From Bugula neritina (Eukaryota; Animalia; Bryozoa), in NCBI GenBank assembly GCA_964035545.1, contig OZ037765.1, forward strand, positions 17,298,995-17,362,994: a stretch of DNA of 64,000 nucleotides, given 5' to 3'. Positions 1 through 53,733 of this stretch are shown piece after piece (the stretch's first letter is position 1; each line of letters begins with the position of its first letter). The position numbers were made by a program, and so were the translations under genes. The notes under the pieces are model-generated. The model saw only the letters and a list, made by a program, of their open reading frames with translations. It was not told the DNA's origin and did not search any database.

Positions 1-38
1 GCCCCAATACCAACAGCACCAACAACAGAGTCAAGGGT

Positions 39-276
39 TTTGAATGAGAAATGTCAGAGGTAGAAGTGGTGGATGGAGAGGAATAACAAACCGGGGAAGA
101 GGACGAGGTGGATACTTCAACCAGGGGAAGCCTCAACCCTACTACCAATCTTCTCCCTTTGAATGAGAAATGTCAGAGGTAGAAGTGGTGGATGGAGAGG
201 AATAACAAACCGGGGAAGAGGACGAGGTGGATACTTCAACCAGGGGAAGCCTCAACCCTACTACCAATCTTCTCCC
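39..276 (+). repeat. Exact 119-bp tandem duplication in the gag 3' region
   Basis: 39-157 and 158-276 read identical (tttgaatgagaaatg...tcttctccc); the period is not a multiple of 3. Confidence 0.95.
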
Positions 277-590
277 CGGTACCCTCATCCACCACCACAA
301 CTTCCTTCCTGCCCACCTCAACCACCCTCTCACCAGCAACCACAATGTAATCAGTGCTCTGGTCAACAGAGCAAAACCAAAGATTACAGTGGGACGCGAC
401 CCATCAATGCGATTGAGAGCCTAGAGGGTGATAAATTTGCCGAGGCACTTCTGACTCAGCCTCCTCGAGATAAGATAACTGATGAATCAGTGAATTCAAT
501 TCAAACCTTTCCAAATGAATTCCTCTCTGACAGGAAACCCAGAGGAAAAAGAAGCAGCGAACGGGGGACTGGTTTGTCAACAATACAAAC
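163..590 (+). pseudogene. gag: Gag C-terminal (nucleocapsid-like) region, in frame with the env-like ORF
   Basis: RGG-rich tract (RGRSGGWRG..RGRGRGG), Pro/Gln-rich tract, CNQC (possible degenerate zinc knuckle) and INAI motif; no capsid domain inside the window. Confidence 0.6.
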
Positions 591-591
591 C

Positions 592-2690
592 TACATGTTG
601 GCACTAGTGGCAATGTGTATGCTGAGCAGTAGAACCGCAGCCACTGCACCAGTAAAAGGCACAGCTTTCCTGGGACCAGTGTTGGCCAGTCAGAGTCTCA
701 CCAGCATATTATCTGTGTTAGTGTTGACAACAGTAGTGAATGCATTGTCCAACACGCCGGTTTTTAACACTACACAGAAGGCACAGCCACAGTATGCCAG
801 GTATCCTTTGGTGTATAGTTCCAGTGAAGTGAGGCGACCATCTATTTATCAATTGAATCATGACTTCCAATGTGATCCGACTCCAAGACCCAATAGTACT
901 CATGTGCCAACCCCTGTGAAGGCTATGGTTTACAGAAAAAATGTAGCGGAATGGCGTACAGCAGCATACCAATGCACTAAAATGCTGTACACCATCTCCA
1001 CACAGATATCACTTTTTACGGACGTGAAAACTAAGAAGGAATCTCACCGGTCACTGCCAGTTAGCCGCAGCAAATGTGAAGATATGGTACTAGAGAAAAG
1101 ATGCAATGAAGGTGCCCTATCTGGAAGTGATAGTGTATACACTACAAAAAACAAAGCTGCAAGATTAGCTTATGTTTGGTGCTGCAAGTGGATTGACTTT
1201 GAAGTGAAACAATGCAGTTATATTACAGCTTCGGTATACAAGACATTTGAGAAAAGTTCTTTTGAAAGCACCGCAGGCGACGTTTCTCATTGCAACTCAT
1301 ACTCTGATGGCTACTGCAAACTCAGAGATCAATCTATGCTGATATGGGAAACAGAACGAGAAGCTAATTGTCCATACAAAAAGTGGTATGAAGTTGAAGG
1401 AAGTTTCCTTGATGGCTATTTTGTTAGTAATCAAGAAGACTTGACTAACATTCCGCAAGAACTCCTTTGGAAATATTACCACTTGTGACGGCAAGTCCGG
1501 CACAATGTCGGACCAAGGTTTGCTTGTCGTTTTTAATACTTCAGACCTGTTCAACACCACTCTAACGCAACATGTTGAAAATGCTCCTGGATTAGAATGG
1601 GACAGCAGGGATCGTTTGAGTTCAGCATAGGCTGTAATTGACGTTACAGCTCAGTCCCTAGAAGTACAGATTCTTGGAATCGAATCGAAACTGTATTGGA
1701 CATCTTATCAATATACCTGTAAAAACATAGTTCAAGTCCTCAAAACCGTAGCCCTACTCGCAGAGCAGCATGCGACGAGTACAGCCAGATACTTACTAGG
1801 GGTAAGCAATATCCGTCCGAGTCTGGTCCTGGGTTTCTGAAGATTTACCCATGTGCGGAAATAAAAAGCTACAAAATGCTCCCTATGCCAGAGAATAACT
1901 GCACCATGTTTATTCCAGTAGAATTGGACTTAGTGGGGAAACGCACACTGGTTTCATAGATCCAATGGGTAACATTATTCACACACAAAGTGCACAAGCA
2001 CCATACACGTCCAAATCAGCAATTGCATTCCAGATGAACGATGAATTGTTTTGGTACAACCAAGATGGTAACGTAGAAAAGGTTAATCTTGGAGAAGACC
2101 TGAATTTACCTGGAATTTCTCTAGGTGTACACCCTCTTAAAATCCATGAAAAAATCTACAGCCGTGCCCATCACCTAAGTTGGCCTGACCTGTCAGCACA
2201 CTCTGACTTGAATGAATTGCTGACTACTTTGTCAAGACAGAAACAAGTTTTAGAAGCGATGGGAATTCAGTCCAACAGACATGTTTCCTTTAAAAACAAT
2301 GTCGTTGAGTTGAAAGAGAACTTGATAGGAAACTCTTGGTTTGCTTTCCTGTTTGGAGGACATGTGGTGAGTGCATTCGAATTGTGGACTTTGATATCCA
2401 ACTGTTTAGTCACCATATTGTCAGTTGCATTGCTAGGTATTTTCCTATATAATCGATGTTGCCAGCGAATGAGAAATATTGTAGCAGCTATTGACATTGA
2501 GGACACAGAGGACACATCTGACAAGGATGTTGAGGCAGGAGAACAGGATGGGCTCCTGGACGCTTCCGATCAGACTAGCTTCACAGAATTTGTAGATATG
2601 GTAGAGATGGACACTAGACCAACACCTAGTGCTCCTTCGCCTGCATATTCAATTCAGCAATATCGCCCCCTCTATCTGAAACTGCAATGA
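592..2690 (+). pseudogene. env: Env-like class III fusion glycoprotein (rhabdovirus G / chuvirus G / herpes gB-like), disrupted
   Basis: Hydrophobic leader segments at 592-627 and 703-744; Cys-rich ectodomain with several N-x-S/T sequons; C-terminal TM at about 2382-2450 followed by RCC and an acidic tail; ORFs 163-1488 and 1965-2690 join through frameshifts near 1445, 1815 and 1945 and one TAG near 1628. Confidence 0.8.
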
Positions 2691-3375
2691 CTAGAAGCTG
2701 ACACACCCAGTACTAGTAGCCGTATTGAAATAGTAGCAGGAATAAATGGTAGTCAATGTAGGAGTGCATTAATTGATGTCAAAATAGCAGGAAAGCCGTA
2801 TCAAGCATTAGCTGATGCCGGGGCTACGGTGACATTGATGCGCTCTGACATTGCTAAAAGATTGAGTTTACCGTTATATTCAGGTACCTTGACTCAAAAG
2901 GGGTTAACAGCTCTAAACTTCATATAATAGGACGCAAGGCTGCTGAGATTACAATTGGATCAAAAGTGTTTAAGCAGTGTTTTCATGTAGCTGAAGATTT
3001 TGGCCATGAGGTACTGCTTGGAACTGATTTTCTTAGCGAACTGAGTGATGTCATCTACAATTTTGCAAAAGGAGAAGTAGTGGTACTTACAGAGGTAAAA
3101 GATACAGAAAAGGATGGAGTATTTATGACGAAAGGTCACATGTCTAATAAACCAAAACCCTTACTGATAGGCAGAGCATTGAGCAAGTCAAAGGAAAAGA
3201 GAATGCCGACACCTATCATTAATACAGGAGGTGAAACTCTGAAAATACAAGTGAACACTGTAACAGGAGAAGCTTCGGAAGTAGATGAAGACGAGATATT
3301 GATGACCAATATCAGTGAAACAAAGCCTGGACCAAAACGTGATCTTGGAAAACCCTCGATCAAAGCAAGACTATC
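2691..3375 (+). pseudogene. Aspartic protease and spacer (frameshifted)
   Basis: In frame after TGA 2688-2690: IDVKIAGKPYQALADAGATVTLM (Asp codon at 2814); VLLGTDFL motif in ORF 2966-3379. Confidence 0.85.
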
Positions 3376-4760
3376 TTGAACGATGATGAAATGAACCAGC
3401 TTAGAAATCTTGTCAACAAGTTTTCTGATATCGTCGGGGAGGGCATATCAGAGCTCGGCCGAACAGATATAGTACAACACATTATTGAGACAAAACCTGG
3501 AACTTTCCCTATAAGAAGTCGTCCCTACAACATACCAGTTGGATTGAGAGCTGAAGTCAAGAAACAAATTGACAATCTAGAACAGGGATTGATTGAGATG
3601 TCTTCTGGACACTGGTCATCTCCGATAGTGCTAGTGAAAAAGAAAGATGGCTCATACCGATTTTGTGTCGACTACCGCAAATTAAACGGCGTAACTGAGA
3701 AGCAGTCTTTGTGTTTGTTTTCGATCGCGAATGCTATGGAGATAATGCATGGAAAAAAATATTTTAGCACTATAGATCTCTGCTCCGGATTCTTTCAGAT
3801 TGGGCTGCATGAAGATTCACAAGAAAAATCTTCTTTTATTACTCCATGGGGCTCATATAAATGGAAGGTAATGCTACAGGGCGCGCATCTGGTAGTCCAA
3901 GCACTTTTGCCAGACTATCAATGGCAATTATGGCAGATCTAATCAGCGCTGGTTCTAGTGTTGTGTACTTAGATGACTAGTTACTGGCGCCTGAAGACTT
4001 TGACTCTCAAATTCGGCTGATACGTACCGTGTTCAAGAGACTACACTTTGCCGGACTAAAATTTAGACTGACAAAGAGCCACTTTTTCCAAAAGGAAGTT
4101 GTCTATCTGGGACATGTCATTACTCAGGATGGTATTACAGTGGCACCCCACAACGTTGAGAAAATTCAAAAGTTCCCTCAACCAACAAACAAAACTGGAG
4201 TAAGGAGATTGCTAGGACTTTTTGGATTCTACAGAAGTTTCGTAAAAGGGTATAGTCAGCTTGTCAAGCCATTGACAAGGCTGACAGCTGACGACACAAA
4301 GTTTGAATGGGATAGTGTCTGTGAAGAAGCCGTGAAAAAGCTCAAGGACATCATAACATTGGCACCCATCTTAGTATTCCCGGATTTCAGTTCTACTTTT
4401 ACATTGACAACTGATGCATCTTCAACCGCGATAGGAGCCGTACTCTCACAAAAGAAAGAAGAGGGAAAGCAACACCCAGTGTCTTTTTATAGCAGAACAC
4501 TGACAACAGCAGAAAAGAAATGGGAGCCATGTGAGCAAGAACTTTATGCCATACTCTGCTCTGTTAAACAATACCGTGGGTACCTCATGAACACCTATTT
4601 CTACATACAGACAGACATGTCTTGCCTCTACTTACTGAAGACTGCTAACCTTTCTGGCCGCCTTGCCAGATGGGTAGCACAACTATCCGACTATGACTTT
4701 ACAGTAATTCATACTCCAGGAAAAGAAAATGTTGTCGCAGATGCATTATCACGTGCAGAG
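3376..4760 (+). pseudogene. pol: Reverse transcriptase and RNase H (disrupted)
   Basis: PIRSRPY, SSPIVLVKKKDG.YRFCVDYRKLN, IDLCSGFFQI, VYLDD at 3963-3977 followed by TAG, YLGHVI, TDAS, ELYAI, ADALSR. Confidence 0.95.
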
Positions 4761-5886
4761 TTTATAAATATGGTATCTGGAGACCGAGGAAAATCGGCAG
4801 ATGAATTTGCAACAATCCAAAGATTTTTACCTAGGACCAATTCTGCTCTATAAACATAAACAGAAGTTTCCAGCAGTTATGTCAAAAAGAAATTCAATGA
4901 TAGTTGCTAAGGAGAGTGAAAGCTTCCGACTGATTAAAGGTGTGCTCTATAAGAAAATTGATGGAAACTGCAAACTGGCAATACCCGTTTCCCAGAGGCG
5001 TATTATTATATGGACCGCTCACGACTCTCTGACAGCATTACACCAGGGTATTACCAAGACGCGTTTGAAATTGCAGTCACAATACTAGTGGCCTCACATA
5101 AATAGAGATGTCACAGACTATATCAACCAATGCAACTCTTGCCAAAAGAAGAAAAATCCTAAGCTACCCATGAGAGTTCCACTCAAAAATCAAATGGCAA
5201 CGGAGCCCTTTGAGATACTGTCTGTTGATTTCCAAGGACCATTTGTTTTGTCAGACAGTGGAAAGAAACACATCTTGGTGTGGACAGATCATTTCACAAA
5301 ATGGATCGAGATGGAAGCTACAGCGGACCAATCTGCATTGACTGTAGCACAGTCATACATAAATCGCATATTTTGTCGGTTTGGAGCCAGCAAAATAGGG
5401 GGGGGATGGGGGCACATTGAACAGTGGGACACATTGAGACTTTGAATTTTTTTGAAACTGTCTTTCTTTAGAAACTAAATTTTTTGGTCACATGACAGGA
5501 AACACCATGCTTTGTCATCCATCTTGAAATTGGGAACCTAGGAGCAATTCCAAAGGATTGGTGAGTAAAAGTTGTTTTACTAGGTAAAAAGTAAATTTTT
5601 GGATACTTTGATAAATTGTGTTGTTTTTAAAATAATGCAATATGCACTAGTTTTCAAGTAAATATGTTCTCACAAGTCAGTACTAAGCATATTAGTGTTA
5701 ATATAAGTAAAATACCTATGCAAATTTTTATAGCACCATCATGTTCACAAAATTACCCATTGGGGCTGATTGAGACGCACTGGAGGGGGCTGATTGAGAC
5801 ATGTCTCAATCAGCCCCTTAAATATAAAATATTGTCAGTAACATTATATTGTGTTACTTCTATTCTAATTTTAGTACAGTAGCACT

Positions 5887-8652
5887 ATGGTGAGAAATAG
5901 AAAGCCAACTAAAAGAACTAGACCAGATGACTCCACCATTGCTGACGCAGTTGAATGTGTGATGAACAACACTATGTCCATTAGAAAAGCTTCCGCAATG
6001 ATTGGTATGCATAGAGCCACCTTGCATCGCGCTATTGCAAAAAGAAGGAATGCACCCAATGGCAACATATTATTATTTTTCCAGCCTCAATATGGTCACC
6101 AAAAAGTGTTTACTGAAGAACAAGAGAACAGTTTGAAAGAATATATTATAACAGCATCCAAGATGCATCAAGGAATGACTAAGAAAATGGTTCGAGAGTT
6201 TGCATATGAGTATGCAAAACCTCTGAGTAGTAAGAGACCTGTATCCTGGGATAAAAATGAAATGGCAGGTATGCTTTGTGACATTGCATTGAGATCAAAG
6301 TTTGGAATATAAAGTTTGAAACATGTGCAGGTGCATAAACACAAATATTAAGGTTGGGAATAAGGCTATTCACCAATATAATGTTAATTGATGGTCATCA
6401 TTTACGTTTTACCACTAGGAAGTAGATAAATAAAGATACTTTAAGTATGCTTGCCACCTGCTAGGTAATTGTACCTTATGGTTACCGATTATAATTTTTA
6501 TTTCAGGAGAGGATTGGATCTATGGATTTAAAAAGCGTCACATCACTTTATCGGTTAGAACACCGGAGGCGACAAGCCTTGCTCAGCCTTGCATCGCGCT
6601 ATTGCAAAAAGAAGGAATGCACCCAATGGCAACATATTATTATTTTTCCAGCCTCAATATGGTCACCAAAAAGTGTTTACTGAAGAACAAGAGAACAGTT
6701 TGAAAGAATATATTATAACAGCATCCAAGATGCATCAAGGAATGACTAAGAAAATGGTTCGAGAGTTTGCATATGAGTATGCAAAACCTCTGAGTAGTAA
6801 GAGACCTGTATCCTGGGATAAAAATGAAATGGCAGGTATGCTTTGTGACATTGCATTGAGATCAAAGTTTGGAATATAAAGTTTGAAACATGTGCAGGTG
6901 CATAAACACAAATATTAAGGTTGGGAATAAGGCTATTCACCAATATAATGTTAATTGATGGTCATCATTTACGTTTTACCACTAGGAAGTAGATAAATAA
7001 AGATACTTTAAGTATGCTTGCCACCTGCTAGGTAATTGTACCTTATGGTTACCGATTATAATTTTTATTTCAGGAGAGGATTGGATCTATGGATTTAAAA
7101 AGCGTCACATCACTTTATCGGTTAGAACACCGGAGGCGACAAGCCTTGCTCAGGCTACGAGTTTCAACAAAAGCAATGTATCAGCGTTTTTTGAGAATCT
7201 TCAATCTGTTCTTAAGAAATATAGATTCACGGTCAGTGATATATATAACGTGGATGAAACTGCTTTGACCACCGTTCATAAGCCTGAAAAGATTCTGACG
7301 AAAAAAAACTTAAAGCAGGTTGGCCTTCTGACTTCGGCAGAAAGGGGTAATCTAACTACACTTGTGGGTTGTATTAATGCCCAGGGTGGGTCTATACCGC
7401 CATTCATGGTGTTCCCACGAGTTTATTTCAAAGATTCTATGCGAAGTAGGGCTCCACCTGGCTCAACTGGAACAGCCCAAATATTTGGTTGGGTTAACAA
7501 AAAGATATTTCAACAGTAGTTGAAGCACTTTGTGGAGTCAACTAGATGCTCTCTAGAAAAGCCTGCCTTACTGCTACTAGACAATCATATGAGTCGTTTG
7601 TCAATTGTAGCCATCAATTATGCAAAAGAAAATAAAGTGATTTTACTCACATTTCCCCCGCATTGCAGCCATAAGCTCCAACCTCTGGACAGGTCTGTCT
7701 ACGGCCCCTTGAAAAGATATTACAATGACGCCTGTTCTAGATGGATGTTGAACCATCCTGGTCGCACTATCTCTATTCATGATGTTGGTGGTCTTCTTGG
7801 AGATGCTTATCCAAAAGCTTTTACACCATGCAATATAACATCAGGATTTCGCGTTGCAGGAATTTATCCATTTAACCCGGATGTTTTTGGAGAAGATGAG
7901 TTTCCCCATCAGCTGTCACAGATCGGCCTGATCCCAACATTGGTAAGCCGCTGAACAGTCTCGGACCTGGCCGATCAAGTACATCACAGCCATCAGCACA
8001 CATGCTTACTTCAAATGGTCCTTCTACAAGTGAGGTACATATCACCACTAAACAACAACCTACTGCAGAAGAAATCAGAACTTTTAGTAAAGCGCTGCCT
8101 TGAAAACAAAACACCTATAGAAAAAAATCCAAATCCCAAATACTTACAAATACACCAGTCAAACTGCAACTTGAGCAAGAGGGGCTAGCAAAGATGAAGA
8201 AACCTAGAATGAAGCAAAAGCTAGCGAGAAAAAATTAATTTTCTTCAGAAAGTGAAGGAGAGTCCGCGAATGAAATTCTTGCTAAACAATTAGCGAATGA
8301 GGACAGCTCAAGTGATGAGTTGATACCTGAGGACAATAAAGACATTTTGGCTATGTCCGAGAAGGCAAAAGTTGGCTCAAACGTTCTTGTTAAATTTCAA
8401 AGTAAACGGCGAACATGCCACTATGTTGGAACCATTACTGAAACAGATGGTGTGATTAACAAAGTGTCATTTTTTAAAGCTATTGAAGGGGCAAAGACTT
8501 CATTTGTCAAACCTGATGAAGAAGATATTGCAAAGGTTGATAATGAAGATTCTGTTAGGATCTTGCCCACACCTAACATCACCGGTAGAATAAACCGACT
8601 CGCTGAGAGAATAGTATTTGACATAGATCTCTCATGCTACACTACTCGGTAA
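5887..8652 (+). pseudogene. Transposase (HTH_psq + CENP-B-type HTH + DDE_1) with an intron, disrupted
   Basis: MSIRKAS..IGMHRATL, FTEEQE, GT-AG intron 6269-6506 giving [39 protein letters not shown]; stops at 7517 and 8101, frameshifts and an internal duplication. Confidence 0.9.
6020..7153 (+). repeat. Exact 567-bp tandem duplication within the transposase, including its intron
   Basis: 6020-6586 and 6587-7153 read identical; duplicated ORFs appear in the track. Confidence 0.95.
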
Positions 8653-10577
8653 TATCAGTCATGTGTAACACTACATGTTGGTACAAGCCTACCAAATTGT
8701 TTTACAATCTAATGCCAATAGCCACAATTTGAACCAAGTCTGTAACCTTTTTGCCAATATTTTGCGGACACACTCGCTAAGAATTGAGAAAATTACGCAG
8801 AGGTTCATGTCATTTTAGCAGTTGCCCCATTTGATAATCTGTGTTTTAATTGACCAACTGTTTTTGTAGTGGACAGTTATTTTATAACCTTTCTAGCAAT
8901 ATTAGAGAAGTATGCAAATGTTCACATTGCTGTGAATTGCCGTATTTTATCTGTATTTGTTTACTTTAGGCAACTTATTCTACATTTATTGTCGTTTTCA
9001 TGCTTTTAACACTCATTTTGTGCCACCAAAGAATGTTGCTGTAGCTATAAGCCGTCATAGAATCTGTCTATCAATAAATTGTAAAACAAAACAAAAATCC
9101 CACTTACAATGCTTTGCTATAAGGTCACACGAGAGTTGGTTAAGCATCAATATATGTGGACTTAAGTATATTTTTGAAAAATTTTGTTTTATAATTTTTG
9201 TGTTCTAGTCATTGTTATAATATAGTCTCAATGCGCCCCGCCGCATGTCTCAATGTGCTCCGCTATAGGGGCACTTTGAGACAGCAAAAAAAAATGTAAC
9301 GGCCACAAACACATTCTTTTACTAAAAGATAGAGGTCTGAAATTTACAAATTATATACGCAAAGGATGAGAGATTAGTAGTCCACATCCAAATTTTATAC
9401 TAGTGAAATACTTTTTGATTTACACTGAAAAATGCTAAAATTGTCTCCATGTGCCTCCATCTCTCCTACTTATAAATGACCGTGCTAAAAACTTCTTAAG
9501 CGACGTTGTTAAAGAAATCAACAAGCTACTGAAAGTTGATTATCGGTGGACTACCCCTTACCATCCACAGTGTAACGGACAAGTTGAGGTGTACAATCGA
9601 TCCATAGCCCACATGATCTCTCACGTTGTCAACGACACTCACACTAGTTGGGACACCTCTGTCCCTTTTGTCCATTTGGCACACAATAGCTCGCGCCATA
9701 CTATTATCAACGCATTTCCTAGTATGCTTCTTTTGTGCAGAGAACCAAGAATTCCCCATGAGCTGACACTGCCAACAGTTTCGGGCCAGACAGCGCCGGG
9801 TACATATGCGGCAGAGCTGCATCACAGAATGACTAGTGTTTGGGCAGCAGCACGGGAAGCTATTGGTCACTCAAAGAGACTACAAAAGAAGTATTATGAC
9901 AAGAACACAACACCATCTAACATTATGATGGGTGATGCTGTTCTTTACTAAATAAAATAGGATACAATAACCGCACATCTAAATTGATTAAGAGATGGCA
10001 GGGCCCTTATATTGTCAAAAGTGTGACAGAAACCAATGCATTCATCCAACTTTTTGATGATCCCGATTCACAGCCTCAGCAAGTTCATTTGAACAACCTA
10101 AAAATGTATCTTGGACCCCTAGTTCGCGGAGCTGAAAGCCCTTATCTCGACATTGATTTGGAATTAAGTGCATCAAATGGAGAGCCTGACATTGATAAGA
10201 ATGATGGAACGAATGCACATAGTAGTACGAGCGAAGAAGCGGGTAGTTCAGGACATATATCCCAACACAGCGAGTCTGAACCAGACTTAGCTGAGCCCGT
10301 TCAACCTAAAACCAAGCCTGACACCCCTTTGAATGAACGAAGGCTCGGACTGCATAACAGACCTAAAAGGAAAAGGGACCCGCAGTTTGTTTATAGTAGC
10401 AGCATTCAGTAGCTCATCTACTTCACTTTTACATACTTAATAACATGATACATAACCATATTCACACCCGTTTCATTACTTTACATAACCATGCAGATAT
10501 ACCAGATATACTAATATTTACTGCCATATTAATAATCAAGTTTTTCAATAGGACACAGGAGTTTTCCTCTTGTTCAC

Positions 10578-10586
10578 AGGGGGGAG
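10578..10586 (+). promoter_or_regulatory. Polypurine tract candidate of the Gypsy element
   Basis: AGGGGGGAG about 170 bp downstream of the integrase stop. Confidence 0.55.
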
Positions 10587-10919
10587 CACTTCAACATATT
10601 TTTCAGCATTACAGGTTAACATCCTCTACAGTTTTGGCTTCTTATAAAACAAACTTACTAAAAAATTGCAGATATCAAATTGACTTTTGATTAAAATAAA
10701 ATTGAGTAAGTATTGGGGAAATTGAATCAAATCAAGCGGAAATTTTAAATATTCAAAGTTGGGTAAAATGCGGAGTCGATTGCTATCACCACTTCCTGTG
10801 ACTTATGTCTATAATATTCATAATTAGTATATTTTTAGTAAATGTTTACTTATAGCTAAAGTCTTGTTTTTTTAATTTTATCAACAGAAATAGTTCATCA
10901 AAAAAAATAATGAAAATAT

Positions 10920-13365
10920 GGTATAGACTGGTCAGCAGGTATAGTAAGACCAAACGCCCATTATAAATCATCGCAACAACAATTTATTAACATACTCCAT
11001 GAAAACTGTCTGACCAATGTTATTGAAGAGCCAACACACACATTCGGTAACACCCTAGACATTATCTGTACCAGTGACACCTCCATAATAGATTCTATAA
11101 ATGTAATTAGGCCGGGGCTCAGCGATCATTACATCATCGTAGCTAAACTATTAATTGAAAACCTACTTTCCCAAGATGTTAACCACAAAAATCATAAAGA
11201 CATTCTCATCCATCACAAAGCTGATGTCATTAAATTTAGAAACTATATGAGCTATGCATGTGAAAACCTTTCACAGATGGATAATGTCCAGCAGATGTGG
11301 GATACTTTCTCTGTCGCCTTCAAAGAAGCTATTGAAATATCTGTACCAAAAAAGACTATAAAAATAAGAAACAGTGGCCAACCACCTTGATTTTCTAAAG
11401 AGGCTAAGAAACTTCATGACATGCAGATGTCATTATATAGAAAATTCAAGAGAACAAATAACCCATACTTTTTGCAGGGATACCAACAGCAAAGAAGAAA
11501 CAATAAAAAAGCCTTCAAGTTAATCAAGAAGGAATACATAGTGAACAAAGTCTGTAAGCCTCTGCTAAAAGGAAACAGCAAACTCTTTTACAAGCATCTG
11601 CGACACAAACGGAAGTGCCAACATCCACTTACAAGTATTAAAATCAAAAATGGTAATATAACTACAGACAGTCTGGAATGCGCAGAAACTCTAAATAGCT
11701 ATTTTCATAGCCAGTTCTGTATTGATGAAGCCATTACTGATCTCCCCCTTCTCCCTACTAATAGCAGGACTCTTGAGATCAACCCTGAAGGAGTCAAGAA
11801 ATTAATTCACGATCTGAAGAACAATAAATCTCCAGGACCTGACCAGATACAAAAGTGTGAGCTTTTAATAGACCCTGGTATAGTAGCTCAATGTCTTACA
11901 TATGTCTTTCAGGCCTCAATAGACTGCGGAGTGCTCCCAGCACAATGGAGAACTGCCAATGTGACACCAGTCCACAAAAAAGGTGCCAAAGACGAGCAAT
12001 CAAACTATCGTCCAATCTCTCTCACCAGCATCCCCTGTAAAATGTTAGAACACATTGTCCTACATTATTTAAACAAATTACTTGACAGCATGCTCTACAA
12101 CAGACAGCATGGTTTCAGGAAAGGCTTAGGCTGTGAAACTCAGCTTTGTGCTACCTACCACGACATAGCAAAATCTGTGGAGTAGTCCTTGATTTCCGTA
12201 AGGCGTTTGATAAGGTCCCCCACACCCTACTCATGCAAAAAGTCCGTTGTATTGATGGCATTAACCCAAGCATAGCAAATTGGATCCAAGGGTTCCTAAC
12301 AAAAAGAAGTCAGAGAACTGCCATACGCGGTGTATTATCATCAGATCTTCCTGTCTCCTCGGGGGGTGCCACAGGGTTCGGTACAAGGGCCAACATTGTT
12401 TCTTATATACATAAATTACCTACCACAAGTGATAACATGCAAAGTGAGTCTCTATGCCGATGACACCCTGATTTATGCTGCTGTGAATAGCAATGAGAAC
12501 AAGCAGCTTTTCCAGACAAATATAGATGCTCTACATAAGTGGTCCATGAAATGGAAAATGCCTTTTAACACGGAAAAGTGCGAGGTAATCGTCTTTAGCA
12601 AAGCCCCAAAGGCATATCCAGTGTTTGACCCCAGCCATGCACTTGGTGGAACTCTGCTCAAATGCAGACAGGAGATCAAATATCTTGGCATAATTCTGCA
12701 GTCCAACTTAAAATTTGAGCAACGTATTACATCTAAGATCAAAAGTGCCTCCAAGGTCCTAGGTTGCATAAAATACTCGCTTTATGAAGCCCCTGCCAAT
12801 AGCAAACTACTCGCATACACCAGTCTCTGCCGACCAATTCTAGAATACAGCGATACTCTTTGGGACACGGCGGATTCAACTAATATTGATGCCTTAGAGC
12901 GTGTACAGTCCCAAGCAATCAGGTTCATTAACAATATCAAAGGAAGACAAGGCATCTCAGAAGCTCGAAATAAACTCGAACTACAACTTCTCAAAGACCG
13001 AAGAAAAACACATAGGTTGTCACTGTTAATGAGAATCCTCTCAGATGAATCTAAACACCAAACCTTAGCCTCAGCTTATGATGAACTGACTAAAAATAAA
13101 AACAAGTACACCATGTATACGCGAGCTGCACAGAGAGGCGAGCCAACATCTATCTATGCTGCGGGCAAGGTCTATTTTAACAGTTTTCTCCCATGCAATG
13201 TGAGAGATCTGAAGCTAAGGTCAACAAACACACAACAATAAACAGCTATATGCTGCTATACTAACTCATACTGACATTTATCACTAACCAAAGAGGCGCT
13301 CCATGTTTGCACCATAACGGTGACATTGAGTGCTCTATCGTCTACGAGGTGAGTTAACAAAAAAG
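10920..13365 (+). mobile_element. 5'-truncated non-LTR retrotransposon (LINE; CR1/L2/Jockey-group-like ORF2), disrupted
   Basis: Endonuclease tail (GIDW, EPTH..GNTLDI, GLSDHY); RT motifs KSPGPD, NYRPISLTS, QHGFR, LDF.KAFD, GVPQGS, YADD, YLGI; stop at 13241; A-rich tail. Confidence 0.9.
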
Positions 13366-14116
13366 AAAACAATGTAAGAAATGAGTGAAAAAAAATATGT
13401 GACCAGAAATAAAAAAAAAATACTCACTCTAATCAATGAACTCACTAGCACTAATAGTATACATATATACAACAGCTAGTATACATAATTTTCAAATTTT
13501 ACTCATTTTATTGTGAAAGGTTTTTCTTCGTTTTTATTTCTGAGTAGTAATGCTTGATTGTTTATGTTTTCAACTAGCATAAGCCACCGGAGGTGTCTTT
13601 CTCTAAATTGGGGAGGATGCTATAGATGTATTCAAGTATTATTTTATATTTGACATTTTGTATGCATACCCTGTGTTATATTAGGTACTTAGTAGTTGAA
13701 AACCCCAGTACTCAATATAACATGAGTATGAGTATAATTACAAAGTCAAATATTACATGGGTATAAATAATAAAAATAATGATGATGATGCCTATCCAGC
13801 TGATCAGATAAGAAAGAGTGCAGCAGAACCAGAAGTTCATAGGCTCATTTAATCATTTTACTTTCGTACTTTGATACTATTACTAATCTAATGATACAAA
13901 TATATTACTTTAAAATATACACATCTAAATCAGTAAATGCTGATTTATATTTAGCTAGAAATATAACAATATATAACTATAAGTATAAGCATTGCCATTT
14001 GATTTGCATAAGATTAAGTGATAAAATTATCATTAAGTCTAAGAAGTAAGACTAAAAAGTAAAAATAAAATGAAGATAAGTCTAACTCTAAGAGTAAGAC
14101 ATTTCGTCATATTTGA

Positions 14117-14280
14117 GTAATATTTATATTTCTATTACTATTAGTAATACTAATAGTAATACTATTACTATTAGTAATACTATTACTATTACTATTAGTA
14201 TTAGTATTACTATTAGTATTACTATTAGTAATACTATTACTATTAGTATTACTATTACTATTAGTATTACTATTAGTGCT
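14117..14280. repeat. (ATTACT/ATTAGT)n-type degenerate hexamer repeat
   Basis: Direct reading; gives a spurious ITISIT ORF. Confidence 0.9.
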
Positions 14281-14744
14281 AGCAGCTATACATATTTACT
14301 TTTATTCATAACTATAACTGTTGCTTCTATATCTAAAGATGATATATCAACTTTTATATCTAGTTCTACCATGCTAATGATAATAATAATAATATATATT
14401 ATTTTTTTTATTTATTGTGGCGGTTCAACATAGGAGTTCCCCCACCTTACGGATTATTCCCAACTTTTTGATCTCTCAATGCTAAGAATAGACATAACTT
14501 GACTCGACCACTCAGAGCCAAGAATGAAATCGTATTTATCGAGTTATTTTTCCTATCTATCGATATAAACATGTTACAGACCCTACTTCCCATTTATTGA
14601 AGGTACAATTTCAATTTGTTTATGCCAAGCTACAGGCACTGCACTTTGAATTTTATGTTTAACAGTCGCAGTCCTGAATAATGTTCGACTCTAACCACTA
14701 TATAGGGCTGCATTACTGTTAGTGTCACGATGGATAACATTTGC

Positions 14745-14975
14745 AGTATTACTATTATTATTAGTATTACTATTACTATTAGTATCAGTATGAGATTGAG
14801 TATTACTCACTATTACTATTAGTATTACTATTAGTATTAGTATTACACTATTACTATTAGTAATACTAATACTATTACTATTAGTATTACTATTAGTATT
14901 CGTATCAGTATTAGTATTACTATTAGTATTAAGTATTAGTATTACTATTAATATTAGTATTAGTATTACTATTAG
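14745..14975. repeat. (ATTACT/ATTAGT)n-type degenerate hexamer repeat
   Basis: Direct reading. Confidence 0.9.
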
Positions 14976-17900
14976 CATAGTCATATTGATATTCATATTG
15001 ATGTAATTATTATAATAATTTATATGACTATGTATTCATAATATTAATTGATAATGGCAATCTTAAAGTTAATCATAATGATAATTGATAGTGATTATGA
15101 TTATCATTTTATCATTAAAACTAAAAGTAAATTAAAATATCAGACTAAGACTCGGTATCAAACTTAGAGTTAGTATGAATATGATAACCATAATGTAAAT
15201 GGTAACCATAATCATAATGATAAAGTCATAATGATATTGATAATCATAATGAAGATCATGAAAATCAAAATGAGAATGAAATTCAAATTAAAATTCTCAT
15301 CATGATGATGACCATGATGATGTTGATAATCATAATCATAATGATTATCATTATTATAATTTTTTTAATTTTATCATTGAATCATAACGGTAACCATAAG
15401 GCATAATGATGATGATAATGTTTAATTTTATTGTTATAATTGTAATAACGATACTAATAGTAGTTAATTTAAATTAGGCTAATAAGTATAACTATAAGAT
15501 TAGGTGTAAGATTAACTTTAAGTTAAAACTTATAGTTATAGTTATAACTAAAACTTTAAGTATAAGTTATAAGTAATGGTGATTTATATTTAACTTGAAA
15601 TATAAAAAAGGCATTTCAGCTTAATAATTATGACAGCTTTCTATCAAAGTAGGGACTGGTGCAAAGAGACTTTAATTGGAAAAGTTGGAAAAGTGTTGTC
15701 AAGTTAGGGCTTTTTAAACTACAATAATTCTTAGACTGTATTTTAGTTTTATTTTACTCATTACAGGCTGGGATTTGGTAATGAAACAAATGTGAAGCAC
15801 TAAGAATCAGTCTCTGCCAGCTCCTGTTGGTGTTGTATTGCAGAAAATACAATTTTTAGGAGTCTTCCCTCAAAAATAACTGGTAAGACTTAGTTTCACA
15901 CATGTATATTTTTTGTTGTTCAAAAGCAGGTGTAATAATAGAAGTAGCCTGATGCATACAGTGTTAAGTCTTAGCAAATAGCAAAGCAAATTTATAACAG
16001 ATTTAGAAAAAAATCTTTGCCCTCTGAGATAAATTATTACGTAAAGTTAAAAGTAGTTGTAGCACTTTGACAACTTTAAACGTTCAAGACACTTTCAACA
16101 TGAGATCATTTTAAAATGTGCATTATAGTGGTTTCCAATTGTTCTGGCCTGATTTATGCCCTTTTGAGTTCCACCCTTTTGTTTATAGTAGTATCATTGG
16201 GTTTAATGGTGGCAGCTTAAGTTATATCATATATTTCAATGAAAATGGTGGATAAAAATGGGTATTTGCCTTTCAAAGTTACCTTATTAGTAGAAGTTAA
16301 GAGAGAGCTTTTTTACAACTTCCTCCACATTTGAGAGGCTGCTGAAAATAACTATAGAACATTTACATGAGAAGACTATTTTTATTTACATAAATTATAA
16401 TGCCCTTGCTCTTCTGGTGTATTTGGTTATGTCCAGCTAGCAAAAATTTACTGCTAATAACCAAAATTAACCTGAAACAGGAAGAAACAGCAAATCCTTG
16501 TAGATCGAATCTGAAAGCCATGACCATATTGTAAGCAGTAGAAATACAGCCCAACTATATTCTTAAAACCCATAATTTTGTATTTGATAGAATGTAGTCA
16601 TCTGGTCAACTAGTGCACTTGCACTTTCTTTAGGATATATAGTCTGTATTCCATTTAAAAGAAGCAAATCATAATTCTTATACTGTAAAACTCTTATTTC
16701 AACTGGAAAACCAAAACCACTTTGTCTTAGTTTAATAGGACAATTCTCAATAGGCCCTTTTTGTCTCTAACTTTGGTACAGAGAACATTGGTAAATGAGA
16801 TCGTATACTGCTGTACTATATATGATATGCTATGATATGAGAATATTACACCCGAGTAATAGTTGAATCATTCCATGGCAACTAATAGTAATAAAGGTAT
16901 ACTGCGCTTTGTCATGAAACTATTCATCCACAACATGTTATGGCAAATGTGTTCCTATTAATAGTGGCTAAGTATCATATTATCACGCCAGCTAGATATC
17001 AGCTGATCATTTTTGAAATATATGAACACCTATTACCATAGAAACTGAATAGTTAGCAGGCTTAATACTAGTATGCTTATAATGCTAAGCAATATTTACA
17101 CCTTTTCTGTAAGCACCTTAGATCATAATTATGAATATACTATTGCATATTGCATAATTGAATAAATTGCAATGGAAAGAATGTATGATAAGGTCTATCC
17201 AACTCTCAAGTATTTCTAACTTCTTTTAGTTTGCTTCAATCATAAAATGTTACTTCTTTGAATTCTGAAATGTGAAATAGGCAATACACATGTGCTTGGT
17301 AGTAAGTATAGGCAACATCAGCATTACCATCATTTTAATTCGAAATTAGCTTACTTATTAGTTTTATTTATCTACCAGTGCCAAAGGATAAAACAAACTA
17401 AAACTTGAACTTTCAAGTGCGTTGTGTGAATGGGAGATGTTGCTGATTTTAAACATTTAAAAAGAAATAATTTTTTGGCAAGACAATTTCTCGGTCAGCT
17501 CTGTTTACAAATAACATTTGAGTGCTGACCGCTGCGAGTAGCATAAGCGCGAAAGCAGAGGTCATTAATTAGCACTGCTTCAGCTGGCATCACGTGTTTT
17601 GGCATGCGCTCTTTGTTAATGCTATATTGGACAAGGTCGCGCGAATGCACTCCCACTTAGGTGGCCAATCACGCTTGGGCAAATGACACCATCAGTCAAT
17701 GGCCTTATTCAAGCAAGGTTTAATGAAGAGTAAATAAGGCCACTGAAATTCCCCAGTTAAGTGTGTATAATATCCTTGGATGTAGTCATGGTGCAACACT
17801 TTTGATTTACAACTTAGATGGGAAGCATAATGCACATAAACTGAGTAAATGTTTCGTACAGTTTATAGAATGCTAATCAGTTTCATTTGCACATACTAAA

Positions 17901-24400: not shown

Positions 24401-27400
24401 AATTAATGCATCATTTAAGCATAGATACTAGTAATGCAATTTTTATATTTTTACAGTATGTTTGCTGTAAATTTTTGCTAGTAAAATTCTCCTCAGTTTC
24501 TGCATATGTAGTGTAATCAACCATATTGTTTCTGAAATGTCCACGTGGTGCAGATTATTTTTTCTGTAGCCAAACCCTACTAGTTTAGTACCATGATATT
24601 TTATGTATGACTCAGGCTGGTTGGAGTTGTCGTATGCAGTGTTTGAGCACCCAATAGGCCAATGGGTGTAGTATGTTTCAATTGCATGCAGCATGGTAGC
24701 TTTTATAGCCTCTTTGGTTTTATCTCAGTATATATATACTTGTATATGTCCATCATACTTGTTTATACTGCAACATTTTTATCGAGCTCCTTTTTAACTA
24801 ACCAATTAGTTTTTCCTCTCTATGGCCAATGTATTAATCAAGTCTCGATGTATATATTTATCAAGTTTTGGTGCCAAACAAAAGCCAAGAATGATTTTAA
24901 GCATGTTGTTGGGCGGTACTGAACTAAACACATATTTAATAGCCATGTATCCTTAGCGTATTCAGCATATGATTGGTATGATATTGTATTATATAACTGT
25001 AGTGAGAGTGGTGACGACGCAGATGATGAGAAAGAGAAGCTCTCAACTCTTGAACCTCTGACTGTAGAAACTAATACTAACACTCTGGCTGTGTCAGATG
25101 ATGCTAATGATAAACATTATGTGAAAGCCTTGCGTCTCACATCTGAAGAATTAGTAAGTAAATTGTATAGCCTATAGATTGAAATGTGTGCTAAATTTTT
25201 TCTAGCCTCAAAACAAAAATGTATTGTTTTACAGATCTATGCTTTTGCCTTCTAGTTTGATTTTACAAATTTGTGGCAAGTCGCTTGTTTTAATGTATTT
25301 TATTGGTAAACATTGTGTAAAAGTGTTGAATTGTCACCGTTTTACCCTCTTCTTTTGGTCTTGTTTAGCACAAGCTCAATTTGCACGAAGGAGAAAATGA
25401 AATAGAGTTTAGCGTGACAACAGCATTTCAAGGCACAACTCGATGTGTTGCTAAAATCTACCTCTGGAAGCATACCGACAAAGTCATTATCTCTGATATT
25501 GATGGAACAATCACCAAGTAAGTAACCAGTAATTTAGTTAAATGTTATTTAATGAAAATTGCTTTGCCTATAAGAGTTAGTTCCTAAAGTGGGTTTGGGG
25601 TGACCAGACTTTCATTTCCTTATAACTTGAAAATGTTTGGTGAATTTCCTCTTCATTAGTAACCTTATACAACTCAACAAATTAGCACTATTTGCATACT
25701 TGCAATTTTAACAGCTTCACCCACTGTTGCAGGTCGGATGTGTTGGGTCAGTTACTACCCCTATTCGGCAAAGAATATGCCCACTCAGGTGTCACAGATC
25801 TCTTCACTAAGATCGCTGCCAACGGTTACAAGTTTGCATACTTGTCTGCTAGAGCTATTGGCCAAGCTCAGGTGACCAGAGACTACCTGAAGAGTGTGAG
25901 ACAGGGGAAGTCAGTTCTGCCCCCAGGTCCTATGCTACTCAATCCTAGCTCACTCATCAATGCTTTCCACAAGTATGTACAATACCTGACCATTAATCTC
26001 ACACAAGTGGGCCTGCGTTATGTTTCAGTGAGTATTCTGGTAACCGTAACCAATAATCCTTTGAGATAAACCCAAAGTGGAAGTGCTAGTCAGTGAGGTA
26101 ATATATCGCACCATTGTCCAGGTAGTTATTAGAGCGATGAGTACAGAAACTGATGGTTATTTATATGCTGATAATGCTTGTAGCGACTCAGCCATTATCA
26201 AGTATTTCGACATAAGCTGGACTAATCATATTTTTATTATGAGAAAGCATTTATCTTCTTGTAAGCCCACCTCTAGAGTTTAGCCTGTATGATAGTATCA
26301 ACACGTGAGGTCATTATTCTATTATCATTCTTTACAACATGAAGTGTCATATTAGGAATACCAAAAACATCACATGATGATTTTATTGCTCAACACTGCT
26401 GTAATTTTCCCTTTATCTCTGTAAACATTCTACTAAACAAACATTCCTATACCTAAATGCACAGTAACTAGGGCTAGTTTACACCAACTATGGAATTTAA
26501 TTTAAAGGGATCGAAATGTTTTGTAGAAGTTCTGGAATCCATTCCTAATTAACCAGAACAGCATTATGAGATTATGTTCTTGATAGTGTTGATTGTATTA
26601 TTTAAAAGAAGGGCTAGCTTAGTGCTTTAGTCTAATGGGAATCAGGATTTTACATTCAAGTGCAGTAGTGGAACAGTTTTATTAGCCTAGGTCTCTTCAT
26701 TTTCTTAATAAACGTTGATTTGGAGCCTGGGTTGAAATTCTCACAAAAACATAACTTCTTTTGCTACATTTTCAGTGTAGGCCTTTTTAAGTTTCTCCTT
26801 GTATCTACATCAGATTAAAGTAGCTGTGCATGATGCCTCTGAAGCCATAATGCAATTCACCAGTTTAAGGCTGCATTTTGATATAGCAACTTGAGGCAGT
26901 TGCAATGGCAAATTTATGTCAATGTTTATAGTTATACTTACTAGTTCTAATTGATAATCATTTTTTTAGTTTTAGTTAATTGTATTTTTCCTGTACTTAC
27001 ATGAAGTAGTTGAGTATGCTGTTGAATGAGAGGATGATATTTGATACTATATAAGTATTAGCTACCAATATTTAGGTTAGATAAGGTAACGATAATATCA
27101 ATCAAGACAGTCTATAGTATCTAATTTAAATTCACTGCCTCTGAATTATTTTTAGTATCTTATTCAACATGTCCAATATTCAATTCTTTTGAATATTACA
27201 ATTTTTATTCAAAGAATTGGAAATACTTGCAGAGAGGTGATAGAAAAGAAGCCAGAAGAGTTCAAGATTCGCTGCTTGAGGGATATCAAGTCTTTATTTT
27301 CTTCAAAAGAGGCCCTCTGTGCTGGTTTTGGTAACCGAGTAAATGTATGTACCATAACATCATTCAGTCACATATGTAATTACATGATCAGTCTGCAATG

Positions 27401-33859: not shown

Positions 33860-41328
<7,469 letters not shown>

Positions 41329-44939: not shown

Positions 44940-47159
44940 TTAATGGGAGTTGAGCAATGATCGAGGAGATGGAAGAGATATGGTCAGACAGTCCTCAGCC
45001 TCCTCCCCATCATTAGCATTGTTGGTAGCTTCGTTGGTGGCTTCTGAACAGGTGGCTGCTATCTGATTGGATGGGGCTGCCTGCTCACTCGTTCGTAAAA
45101 ACGCATCAACAAGCAATGATTTTGAATCTTTGCTTTCCTCTAGAGACTTTTCACATGGCCTGTCTTCTTTAGCTTCAACAATTGACTGATTGGGTTGACC
45201 AATGCTGGACAGATTCTCACCACCCACGCTATTTGCTTCATCCTCATCTTGATCAGAATCATCCTGGAACTGGGCATTCAAAACAGCATCCTGCTTAGCT
45301 TCATTAATGGCCTTAATATAACTCTTAGATTTCTTTTTCTTGTCAAATCTACAGCATAAGGACCAATAATCTAGGATTATAGACAAATACAACAGTCAGA
45401 ATCTTCTGCTCAACTGCTTTGTTACGACATAAGTTGTGCAACAAGAAAAGAGTAATGCTTATTATTCACTCAACCAAACAGCTTCACTTGTCATAACTTG
45501 ATTACAAAGATCCTAGGAGAAAAAGTAGGGCTGAGTGAAATAATGAGTTGTTCTCTCATGTTTTTTATTTTTATAGGAGCAGTGAATAGCTGTCAATTTT
45601 CCTAAAACCTGTCATATGATAATAAAAACATAAAGCCGTTTCCTAAGAGCAACACAATGTTTACCTTTTAGAGAATTCTTCAATAAATGGGTAGATAAGA
45701 GAGCAAGATAAATGTGACTTTGTAGGTGATGAATACCAGTCAATATCTGCAGTGTGACCCAGGATCATGCCGTCTACAGTCTCATCCACTGTGATTGTAC
45801 ACACCCTACCAGGCCACCATGGGAATCCTATTATTTTGCCCCAGATTACATCACCAACACAGATACGTTTACCACTTGAGCTTTCATATTTTGATACCAA
45901 TCGTGATTTCACTTCAGATGTTACACTGGCAGATTTATCAAGAGTTGGTTGGGATTTGCTAGATACTGTAGTAGAATTTTTTGCTATCTTAGGAGTAATC
46001 TTCTGTCGCCTCAAACGAGCCTTAGTTTTGGTTATTGGCAATACCGGATCAGCATTGATATCTGATGTGGCTGAAGGCGGACTGTCTAAACCTAATACTG
46101 TGTTTGTTGCTAAAGTTGAAGGAGTCAATTTTCGTCTGCGCTTTGTAACGGGTTCACCGGGAATATCTATGACTAGGTCGTTGCATTCAGAGTCATCATC
46201 ATTCGTATCAGCTAAGTTTTGCAGTTGAGTGGGATGAAGCTTTGCCAACACTTGAGGTCCTACAGCAATATCTGGTGATTGGTTAGGTTCCATCACAGAC
46301 TTAGCCAATGACGAGTGCTCCATATTTCCAAAATCTGGTTCTCTATTACTACTGTCTTTCAATCTTTTTGAATGCTTTTTACTTTTATGTTTTCTTTTGT
46401 GAGAAGATTTCTTATATTTCTTAGGCTCTATTTCCATAACACTATGCCCATTTGGAGCTTTGAAAGAGATCTTGATGGGTGGTGTTGTTAGGTTAGCACC
46501 AGATTCTCTGTCACTATGCTCATCAGAATCTATGCAATGAGTTTTGCACATGGAACACAAAAAAAATTTAGGCTTGCTAATTCTTTGTCTTAACCTACGG
46601 TTGTCATGAAGCCGTCGTATTGAAGAAGTTATGCTGCGACTAGGTGCAACACTGCTGTAACTGTCTTGATCTCCCTCGGACAAGTAAGTCTGCCTAAATA
46701 CAACAAAAACAGATCAGATTAAATTACCAAATTTCAAGCAACACAACCCTGTACATGAAACTTCATAGACAACACCAAAATAAATGTTTTATCTTTGATG
46801 ATGAGATAATCCCGTTACCTAAATTGACATGCTGACGTAGATATCTCAGCCTCAGGAATCTCAGTGTCATCTGTATTAACAGTTACAATGGAATGTTTTT
46901 CATCATCTTTTGACGACTTCGGCTTGGGTAGAGTCACAACTGAAGGACAAAGGCTAAAAAATAAAGAATTTAATTTTGAAATAATTTTTGCCAACGTCAC
47001 ATATAATCATTTCTGGGGCTCTAGACGTGAATTAACATTGCTAACTTTGGGTGCTTACACAGGGCTAATAAATCCAACAAATAACACATTGAATTTAAAT
47101 TTAATGTCATATTACATTTGCAGAAATGTATTGACTGCAATTTCATTACAACTACAGGG

Positions 47160-52379: not shown

Positions 52380-53110
52380 TGTTAATGTTAGGTATAGTTA
52401 AGTCTTAGAGTTAGTTATAGTAATAGTTAATGTTATAGTTATACCGTTATACTTATACTTATAGACTTATAGTTATACTAATACTGAGTATAACTTATAG
52501 TACAGAGTAATAAACTATAACTGTTATAGTTATTCACTTACTCTGGTTATTGTATTACATTTACTATTACTATTAGTATTAGTATTACTAATACTAAGTC
52601 TAATAGTAATAGTAATACTAATACTAATAGTCATAGTAATAGTGATTACTAATTACTATTAGTAATAGTAATTAGTAATCAGTAATCACTATTACTATGT
52701 CTATTACTATTAGTATTAGTAATAGTATAGGCATTGCTATTAGTATTACTATTACTAAATCTAATACTAATAGTAATAGTAATAGTAATACTATTACTAT
52801 TTTTATTAGTATTAGTATTAGTATTAAATTTAATATCATAATATTAATTATTGATAATATTGTTATAAAATTAAATGTAAATATATTATAATGAAAATTA
52901 GTATTGGTTGGTCTTATGACCTAATCTTATCACAGTCACTTGTACACTTATAGACTATAGTTATACTTATAGTTCTACTTACAATAATAGTTATACTTAT
53001 ACTATTACTAATAGTAATACTAATACTAATAGTATAAGTATAAGTAACACTTAATCTTATAGACTATAGTCTATTAGTATTAGTATAGTTATAGATTATA
53101 CTTATAGTTA
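52380..53110. repeat. Degenerate hexamer low-complexity tract (TATAGT, ATTACT, AGTAAT)
   Basis: Direct reading. Confidence 0.85.
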
Positions 53111-53733
53111 TGCAGTATCAGTCATGTATCAGTATGAGTATGCCTATTGGCTGTCGCTATTGTTATACTTGTTCTAACTCAGAACTCTCAGACTTGGGCA
53201 GTTAGCCCAGGCTGCCGTACCCTTTTCCCTTAGAGTTACTGTTAGAGTGTTAGGGCCTTACGGCTTGCAGTTACACTTACTGTCACTGTTACTGTTAGTG
53301 TTATTCCTTAGGCTTAGAGTTGTAAGTTGTGATATTCATACTTGTTTTGAATTTGATTATGATATTAAGTTTGATTTTAAAATACTTTAAAACTTAGTTT
53401 AATAGCTCAATTTAAATTTTACTAAAATTTAATATGAATGTGAAATTGAATACTATGACTAACAGTGTGAGTTCGACTATGGTTTATGGCTATAAGTATA
53501 ATAATTATTATAATTAAAAATAGTGGTATTAATATTATGAATATAAATACTGATAGTAATAGTAATACTAATACTAATAGTATTTAGTAATAATCTTGTA
53601 TTAAGGTCAAATTGAAATTATTAAATGTGAAATTATTCATTGTTTTATTTTTATAGATATAGATATCTCAACTTCAATTTGAAGATTACGTTTACCCGTT
53701 TAAAGTTGAAGCCGAACCTCATCAACATTAAAA

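Follow-up and report, generated by a model that had tools for sequence, protein, structure and literature searches.

A conserved in-frame UGA at the end of env, and likely readthrough into pol, in a decayed gag-env-pol Ty3/gypsy element of the bryozoan Bugula neritina

Ty3/gypsy elements with the gene order GAG-ENV-POL and an envelope (env) of the herpesvirus glycoprotein B (gB) type have been reported from Bryozoa, Nematoda and Platyhelminthes by Chary & Hayashi (eLife 2026, PMC13524379), who credit the nematode layout to Sacco et al. 2022 and list 10 bryozoan elements, with an open reading frame (ORF) filter that allowed up to five stops. Here, we describe an element of this kind at the 5' end of a stretch of 64,000 nt from Bugula neritina (contig OZ037765.1, positions 17,298,995 to 17,362,994), which is referred to as the window throughout. 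The window element shares its gene order, its Ty3/gypsy pol and its gB-type env with Cpal_errantivirus_4, 5 and 6 of Cryptosula pallasiana. Counted by eye, 81 of about 171 positions (~47%) of env domains I-II match those of Cpal_errantivirus_4, and in the C2b alignment, likewise by eye, shared cysteines were found in the first frame of the window (nine) and in the next piece (one). It differs from all 10 bryozoan elements in that list. The gene order is already published, and by sequence comparison the window element is a further member of the GAG-ENV-POL gB-type group. A preliminary description of this DNA had taken the layout to be undescribed and the env to be an independent capture; neither view holds, the env being close to those of published bryozoan elements and part of a wide gB-type group.

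The published gene order left open how the amount and the packaging of the enzymes work if Gag and Pol are separated by a membrane protein. The main text and seven supplements of PMC13524379 make no mention of readthrough or frameshift, nor do the supplements mention late domains; in the literature we searched, mostly outside subscription journals, neither a readthrough junction nor tail motifs of such elements were found. Comparing copies and relatives, we consider it likely that the family to which this decayed Ty3/gypsy element belongs, with its gB-type env between gag and pol, makes Pol by letting ribosomes occasionally pass a conserved UGA that closes the cytoplasmic tail of Env.

The stop codon between env and pol

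The reading starts from the TGA at the env-pol joint (Table 1). For positions 2590-2800 we had a set of 19 contigs, 15 of them listed and five bridging the TGA. The codon is kept in all five listed bridging contigs, which come from four studies and show no letter change or indel at 2678-2698, and 17 other places within 2590-2800 vary among contigs of the window family. A metagenome scan revealed six loci (L001 to L006), five of which include the junction; these fall into two further families, with about 66-68% nucleotide identity to each other and to the window. These five loci display gag-env, a single TGA and then a long in-frame pol, which amounts to 1289-1290 codons where complete and carries all domains. 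The junction reads CAA TGA CTA G in the window, CAA TGA CTA T in L003 and L004, and CAA TGA CGC G in L001, L002 and L005. With the three families aligned, CAATGAC stands out from a poorly conserved spacer as its one long invariant run, and even in the region of reverse transcriptase (RT) and RNase H invariant runs of 7 nt make up 0.23% of alignment windows. The first Met after the stop falls at codon 50, 66 and 67 in the three families, compared with codon 42, 41 and 41 for the catalytic Asp of the protease. Eight Gag-Env proteins of the near clade, five of whose tails are known from protein alone, stop about 70-120 residues past the transmembrane segment and end in Gln (seven of eight) or His (one of eight); P0139, a fragment from the same family, and P0157, which has no stop past the transmembrane segment, were left out of this count. 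Since the TGA is unchanged across the copies and in two families with an open in-frame pol, it is to be read, on this comparison, as a feature of the family and not as decay. Annotators should note that a single stop at this env-pol junction is no sign of decay.

The surroundings of the codon also resemble a known class of leaky stops. The Type II context of viral readthrough consists of UGA-CUA or UGA-CGG, with CGC in potato mop-top virus and a conserved A before the stop; its stem follows a spacer of 7-8 nt, and the published conserved regions span 100-200 nt (PMC3159437). Set against the CUA/CGG criterion, the window, L003 and L004 have CUA, and L001, L002 and L005 have the CGC variant.

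A long-range RNA stem after the stop is probable, as judged from folding and alignment; the predicted signal is strong in L004, moderate in L002 and weak in the window by itself. In the window, +9 to +21 is predicted to pair with +350 to +363 at a probability of about 0.6, and in L002 the arm at +10 to +21 finds its partner at +348 to +360 with a probability near 1 (P 0.002 for the L002 duplex); this shared partner, at about +350, emerged only with folds of 420 nt. In the shared register, 27 of 30 cells are paired over the three families with three double-sided changes, compared with 23-43% paired in slid controls. A distal partner at about +205 to +250, suggested by L004, was tried and rejected (window, 21% of controls; L002, 43%, P 0.17).

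Envelope, cytoplasmic tail and relatives

A sequence search of the PDB with P0001, a relative of the window element, returned zinc knuckles and weak unrelated matches and no fusion protein, so that a fold search was needed. The structure model was made on the ectodomain of L001, a relative that shares 42-46% identity with the window pieces, and reached a predicted local distance difference test (pLDDT) score of 83 from an alignment of 76 sequences. It matched herpesvirus gB with an E of 5.8e-18, the best listed TM-score being 0.49, to a prefusion-like form, and its best BFVD match was Nyavirus G (E 6e-28). As modelled, the env has a class III fusion fold of the gB/nyamivirus-G type. The gag-env of relatives gave a match to Monjiviricetes_fusion (PF24664); the window's own env pieces gave no meaningful Pfam match.

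P0001, with 1200 residues and 46% identity over env domains I-II, carries Retrotrans_gag, zf-CCHC and Monjiviricetes_fusion in one ORF, as does L001 (PF03732 and PF00098 lie in the same ORF as env in both), and wherever a relative has an open frame at this place, its env is fused in frame to gag. An env tree of 39 rows, comprising the window and domain matches running at least 380 residues past domain II, drawn from 105 domain matches among 151 proteins, placed the window in a clade of nine rows with a support of 100/99. A Pfam scan covered 30 long proteins of the 150 listed relatives; in 12 of these 30 env runs into protease without a stop, and P0157, the ninth row of the window's clade, reads into protease-like sequence without a stop as well. 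Such stop-free relatives mark the env-protease fusion as a natural architecture. A scan of IMG/VR with P0001 gave no match.

Some relatives revealed arrangements of their own. In P0171 and P0183 an aspartic protease lies upstream of a gB-type env in one ORF (gag-protease-env order), P0183 showing protease matches on both sides of env. P0165, with 1441 residues, matches the N-terminal segment of env in 11 stretches and has one PreP_C match. L006, the locus without the junction, holds at 1-1650 a piece of env from the L001 family (87-90% identical); the frame of this piece enters unrelated sequence before the transmembrane segment, and to judge from this break it is rearranged or chimeric.

Two hydrophobic leaders precede the ectodomain in the window and also in L001 (residues 343-394 of the gag-env frame), and one in P0001. 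An even number of leaders would invert Env unless one of them does not span the membrane; by analogy with the rubella E1 signal, one of the two may not be membrane-spanning.

The cytoplasmic tails share two sets of motifs. Late-domain-like motifs (P[TS]AP, [PL]PxY or YPxL) occur in seven of the eight near-clade tails, 12 in all compared with 0.5 in shuffles, and none of 20,000 shuffles reached 12; outside the clade such a motif was present in 4 of 23 tails. The last 15 residues of L001 hold all three classes, and the classes replace one another between families, as expected for interchangeable motifs of the endosomal sorting complexes required for transport (ESCRT). In retroviruses, PTAP, PPxY and YPxL are normally found in Gag (PMC8952333). 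A further motif, V-[NA]-x-[VI], lies 10-27 residues past the transmembrane segment in all eight tails; it is seen again at Gag junctions and, in L004, where RNase H borders on integrase, and may be a protease site.

The decayed copy and its surroundings

On the + strand the window copy shows, in this order, gag tail, hydrophobic leaders, Cys-rich ectodomain, transmembrane segment, tail, protease, RT, RNase H and integrase, with gag truncated at the 5' end of the window and its capsid part lying further 5'. Domain matches and alignments of relatives bear out the preliminary description in placing env between gag and a protease with a Metaviridae-type pol, and its Gag-Env polyprotein ahead of the enzymes is seen as one ORF in the open-frame relatives P0001 and L001. 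Other copies and the two other families hold env at the same place, so that copies lacking it, which would have spoken against that description, did not turn up. The protease does follow the env tail in the same frame, as had been stated; the TGA at 2688-2690, which had gone unmentioned, intervenes. Gag tail, env and protease had also been said to form one uninterrupted frame, which they do not: the first open frame spans 163-1488 (441 codons); the reading frame of env shifts near 1444, 1820-1837 and 1930 and is stopped at 1628, and that of pol shifts at about 2890-2909, 3320-3350, 3885, 4790-4800 and 9950 and is stopped at 3978 and 5086. Nor does the element end at 5397, since a pogo/Tc5-like transposon splits the integrase, which resumes behind it; env is absent 3' of integrase, as claimed, also past the real end at 10412. 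With its stops, its frameshifts and this insertion, the window copy is a decayed, dead Ty3/gypsy element, in agreement with the earlier view of it as dead.

The domain set of pol (PF17917, PF17919, PF17921, PF00665) and its order protease-RT-RNase H-integrase are those of Ty3/gypsy (Metaviridae), and no BEL/Pao family, the peptidase included, was found among the Pfam matches of pol. A search for matching long terminal repeats (LTRs) near the window element gave nothing convincing, the 5' end lying outside the window. Past pol, the purine run of the window resembles a G run 91 nt past the pol stop in L005.

Several smaller features of the copy are worth recording. At 340-360 the window has only a CxxC in place of the full CCHC knuckle of L001 and P0001, and contigs of other copies (X1 record 1 and X10 record 9) are free of indels at this position; from these sequences, the window family may do without a complete nucleocapsid zinc finger. 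Another copy is represented by an RNA-like contig that skips the 119-bp duplication near the 5' end, with a joint 41-161. A beta-rich spacer without a Pfam match lies between protease and RT (L002 pol residues 145-235; ~3070-3320 in the window) and may be dUTPase-like, as in gypsy elements. In this spacer the window is short of ~100 nt compared with contig X2 record 17.

The transposon within the integrase is foreign to the element, is flanked by TA on both sides and has imperfect inverted ends; contigs of all four runs join across the insertion. It shows a weak C-terminal Tudor-like match and a perfect internal tandem duplication with a spacing of 567 bp, and internally deleted derivatives were seen in contigs. 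Just 3' of the retroelement, a broken long interspersed nuclear element (LINE) probably cuts the 3' LTR; a search for its target duplication gave nothing convincing. Elsewhere, the window holds host exons at 25686-26069, 40694-41044 and 44940-46713, for lipin (LNS2), an RtcB tRNA ligase and a PWWP-domain protein (- strand). Among named sequences, the lipin exon matched that of the bryozoan Watersipora subatra best, at 120 bits compared with 114 for a centipede, a margin that makes it weak evidence of a bryozoan host by itself; the affinity of env points the same way, and a search with the PWWP protein was uninformative on the host. It also carries a long inverted repeat at 54859-56416 with arms of 370 nt (94%) and 309 nt (95%) and GATCGATC-rich units, similar to foldback elements or miniature inverted-repeat transposable elements, and AT-rich TATTAC/TATTAG microsatellite-like arrays at 14067-14985 and 52526-53597.

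Table 1. Features of the retroelement and its insertions, in window coordinates
Feature	Position	Strand	Remarks
gag 3' end (RGG repeats, Pro/Gln tract, CxxC without full CCHC knuckle)	1..567	+	aligns to gag tails of L001 and P0001
perfect 119-bp tandem duplication	39..276	+	copies 39-157/158-276; contains ATG at 163; repeat scan
two hydrophobic segments, predicted internal signal sequence(s) for env	568..735	+	about 568-654 and 679-735; hydropathy scan
env ectodomain, class III as modelled, herpes-gB/nyamivirus-G type	736..2390	+	3 frameshifts, 1 stop; 43-46% identity to L001 gag-env in three pieces
env transmembrane segment	2391..2447	+	hydropathy 2.4 over 19 residues
env cytoplasmic tail, ~80 residues, Gln at end	2448..2687	+	V-A-A-I near membrane, acidic tract, PSAP, degenerate Tyr motifs
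CAA-TGA-CTAG, in-frame stop, predicted Type II readthrough site	2685..2694	+	unchanged in bridging contigs; CAATGAC same in three families
env-tail/protease joint	2688-2690	+	protease in env-tail frame, TGA between
aspartic protease, frameshifted	2691..3070	+	DAG at codon 42 after the stop; PF13650, PF13975
predicted long-range stem, 5' arm	2699..2711	+	begins 8-9 nt past the stop
predicted long-range stem, 3' arm	3040..3053	+	+350 to +363; same alignment columns as L002 partner
RT and RNase H, Ty3/gypsy type, broken	3343..4700	+	PF00078, PF17917, PF17919; 70-75% identity to L002 pol
integrase, 5' part	4783..5394	+	PF17921, PF00665
pogo/Tc5-like DNA transposon, 4.07 kb	5395..9466	+	HTH_psq, HTH_Tnp_Tc5, DDE_1
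integrase, 3' part, and pol C-terminus	9467..10412	+	identity to L004 pol 69% (residues 942-1105) and 42% (1111-1288)
polypurine-tract-like run	10578..10586	+	
broken non-LTR element (LINE) with RT	10914-13241		

Expression of Pol, alternatives and known systems

In relatives, gag and env form one ORF of about 1200 codons. An internal signal would thread Env into the endoplasmic reticulum, and signal peptidase, by analogy with rubella virus, would cut Gag from Env, leaving Gag membrane-anchored, like the rubella capsid, until its release by the viral protease. Past the tail, the single CAA-UGA-C seen in the three families parts env from the in-frame pol, no Met standing before the protease Asp. 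Most ribosomes would stop there, the UGA-CUA/CGC context and the long-range stem being predicted to let a few percent continue. Because Gag would have been cut off upstream, the minority product would be Env-transmembrane segment-tail-Pol, so that the enzymes would enter particles tethered to Env; the protease may then release them by cutting the membrane-proximal V-[NA]-x-[VI] site, and the PTAP/PPxY/YPxL-like motifs at the tail end may drive budding or recruit Gag. For the wider proposal the scales are level: it is an even matter whether a bryozoan clade has rebuilt retroviral assembly around Env, with Pol obtained by UGA readthrough with a stem of ~350 nt and packaged through Env and not as Gag-Pol, and with budding motifs in the Env tail and not in Gag. 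If true, the retroelement would carry its Pol on Env and would be an animal mobile element having a readthrough site with an unusually long-range stem. The clade offers an answer open to test, a leaky stop that closes the Env tail, for which the stop-free relatives provide a natural comparison.

A different source of Pol, be it a spliced gag-pol RNA without env, an internal promoter or non-AUG initiation past the stop, is in our view unlikely. YAG triplets near the stop in all three families would suit splicing, a spliced gag-pol would restore ordinary Gag-Pol packaging, and Tca2 of Candida albicans sets a precedent with a promoter at its junction, the flanking sequence alone giving no readthrough (PMC2194720). 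The candidate splice acceptors past the stop, however, differ in place and phase between families and none is conserved; no env-skipping joint is listed in the four runs, contigs showing presence and not absence; and one contig of the window's own family, RNA-like although no listed source is recorded as RNA, spans env leader to RT (563-4123) unspliced. A separate message would, moreover, leave the conserved frame, the CAA-TGA-C and the terminal Gln unexplained. Termination-reinitiation at the AUG inside CAATGA was rejected as a candidate; that AUG opens the -1 frame, not pol, and in two of the three families this frame closes within a few codons. On another view, the TGA simply ends translation or arose as a mutation that disables the element, the families being non-autonomous gag-env donors or env having been inserted later into a gag-pol element; this would agree with the many other stops and shifts of the window copy. 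The stop is, however, common to all bridging copies and to two distant families whose pol is open with all domains, and the in-frame env-gag fusion in the open-frame relatives speaks against a later insertion of env; this explanation is largely refuted and we regard it as very improbable. Decoding of the UGA as selenocysteine through a selenocysteine insertion sequence (SECIS) would fit the use of UGA in all three families and is the faintest of prospects, as the codon sits in a non-catalytic spacer and its context fits viral Type II readthrough.

Readthrough may also be right and its consequences different, with tail motifs that bind Gag or sort Env and with Pol packaged by binding Gag or RNA after its release. 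This seems to us decidedly improbable. It draws on the PPAY of rubella E2, whose Tyr recruits capsid in a budding that is not ESCRT-dependent (PMC11481484), on the tail of P0147, which has no late-domain-like motif, and on five similar motifs upstream of the tail in four of seven proteins; against it stand the three classes at the end of the L001 tail and their exchange between families.

Turning back to Pol made by readthrough of the UGA and carried on Env, a number of points weigh against it. The UGA junction of Tca2 by itself directed no readthrough in a reporter. DNA is at hand for no more than three independent families, each with loci >99% identical to one another, contigs X2 and X6 carry the same variant, and P0140-P0147 are proteins only, their stop codons and downstream DNA being unseen. 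For the stem, the register was derived from the same three sequences (n=3), 19-20 of 500 column shuffles reach the paired and covariation values, 24% of control sites equal or exceed the window duplex in strength and 5.6% that of L002, and folds of 60-200 nt or of the alignment gave no conserved stem. L004 pairs most strongly with a different partner (+8 to +28 with +213 to +251), in a duplex whose strength none of 93 control sites and none of 3000 synonymous shuffles attained. The paired hydrophobic leaders of the window and of L001 misfit a simple topology, the PPxY pattern was widened to [PL]PxY for the count, the protease-site motif was defined after the tails were seen, and the rubella PPAY recruits capsid by a route other than ESCRT.

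Among described systems, the non-canonical endogenous retroviruses (ERVs) of nematodes resemble the window element in having env upstream of pol in a metavirus, in another host phylum. They reportedly have a nyamivirus-like glycoprotein, which would agree with the best BFVD match of the L001 model, and one continuous gag-env-pro-pol ORF without a stop. Tca2, as described in PMC2194720, is likewise an LTR retrotransposon with one in-frame UGA before pol, but it belongs to Ty1/copia and has no env, its stop joining Gag to Pol directly and its mechanism of bypass being unresolved there. The structural polyprotein of rubella virus also has capsid, an internal signal and envelope in one ORF and a Tyr motif in the envelope tail (PMC11481484); this unrelated RNA virus has no polymerase after its envelope and serves as an analogy only. 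In the junction itself, the likeness is to the Type II readthrough sites of alphaviruses and Virgaviridae (Firth et al. 2011, PMC3159437), which have UGA followed by CUA or CGN, an A before the stop and a stem after a short spacer. Unlike in those viruses, the predicted partner arm lies ~350 nt downstream, and the stop ends the cytoplasmic tail of a membrane protein.

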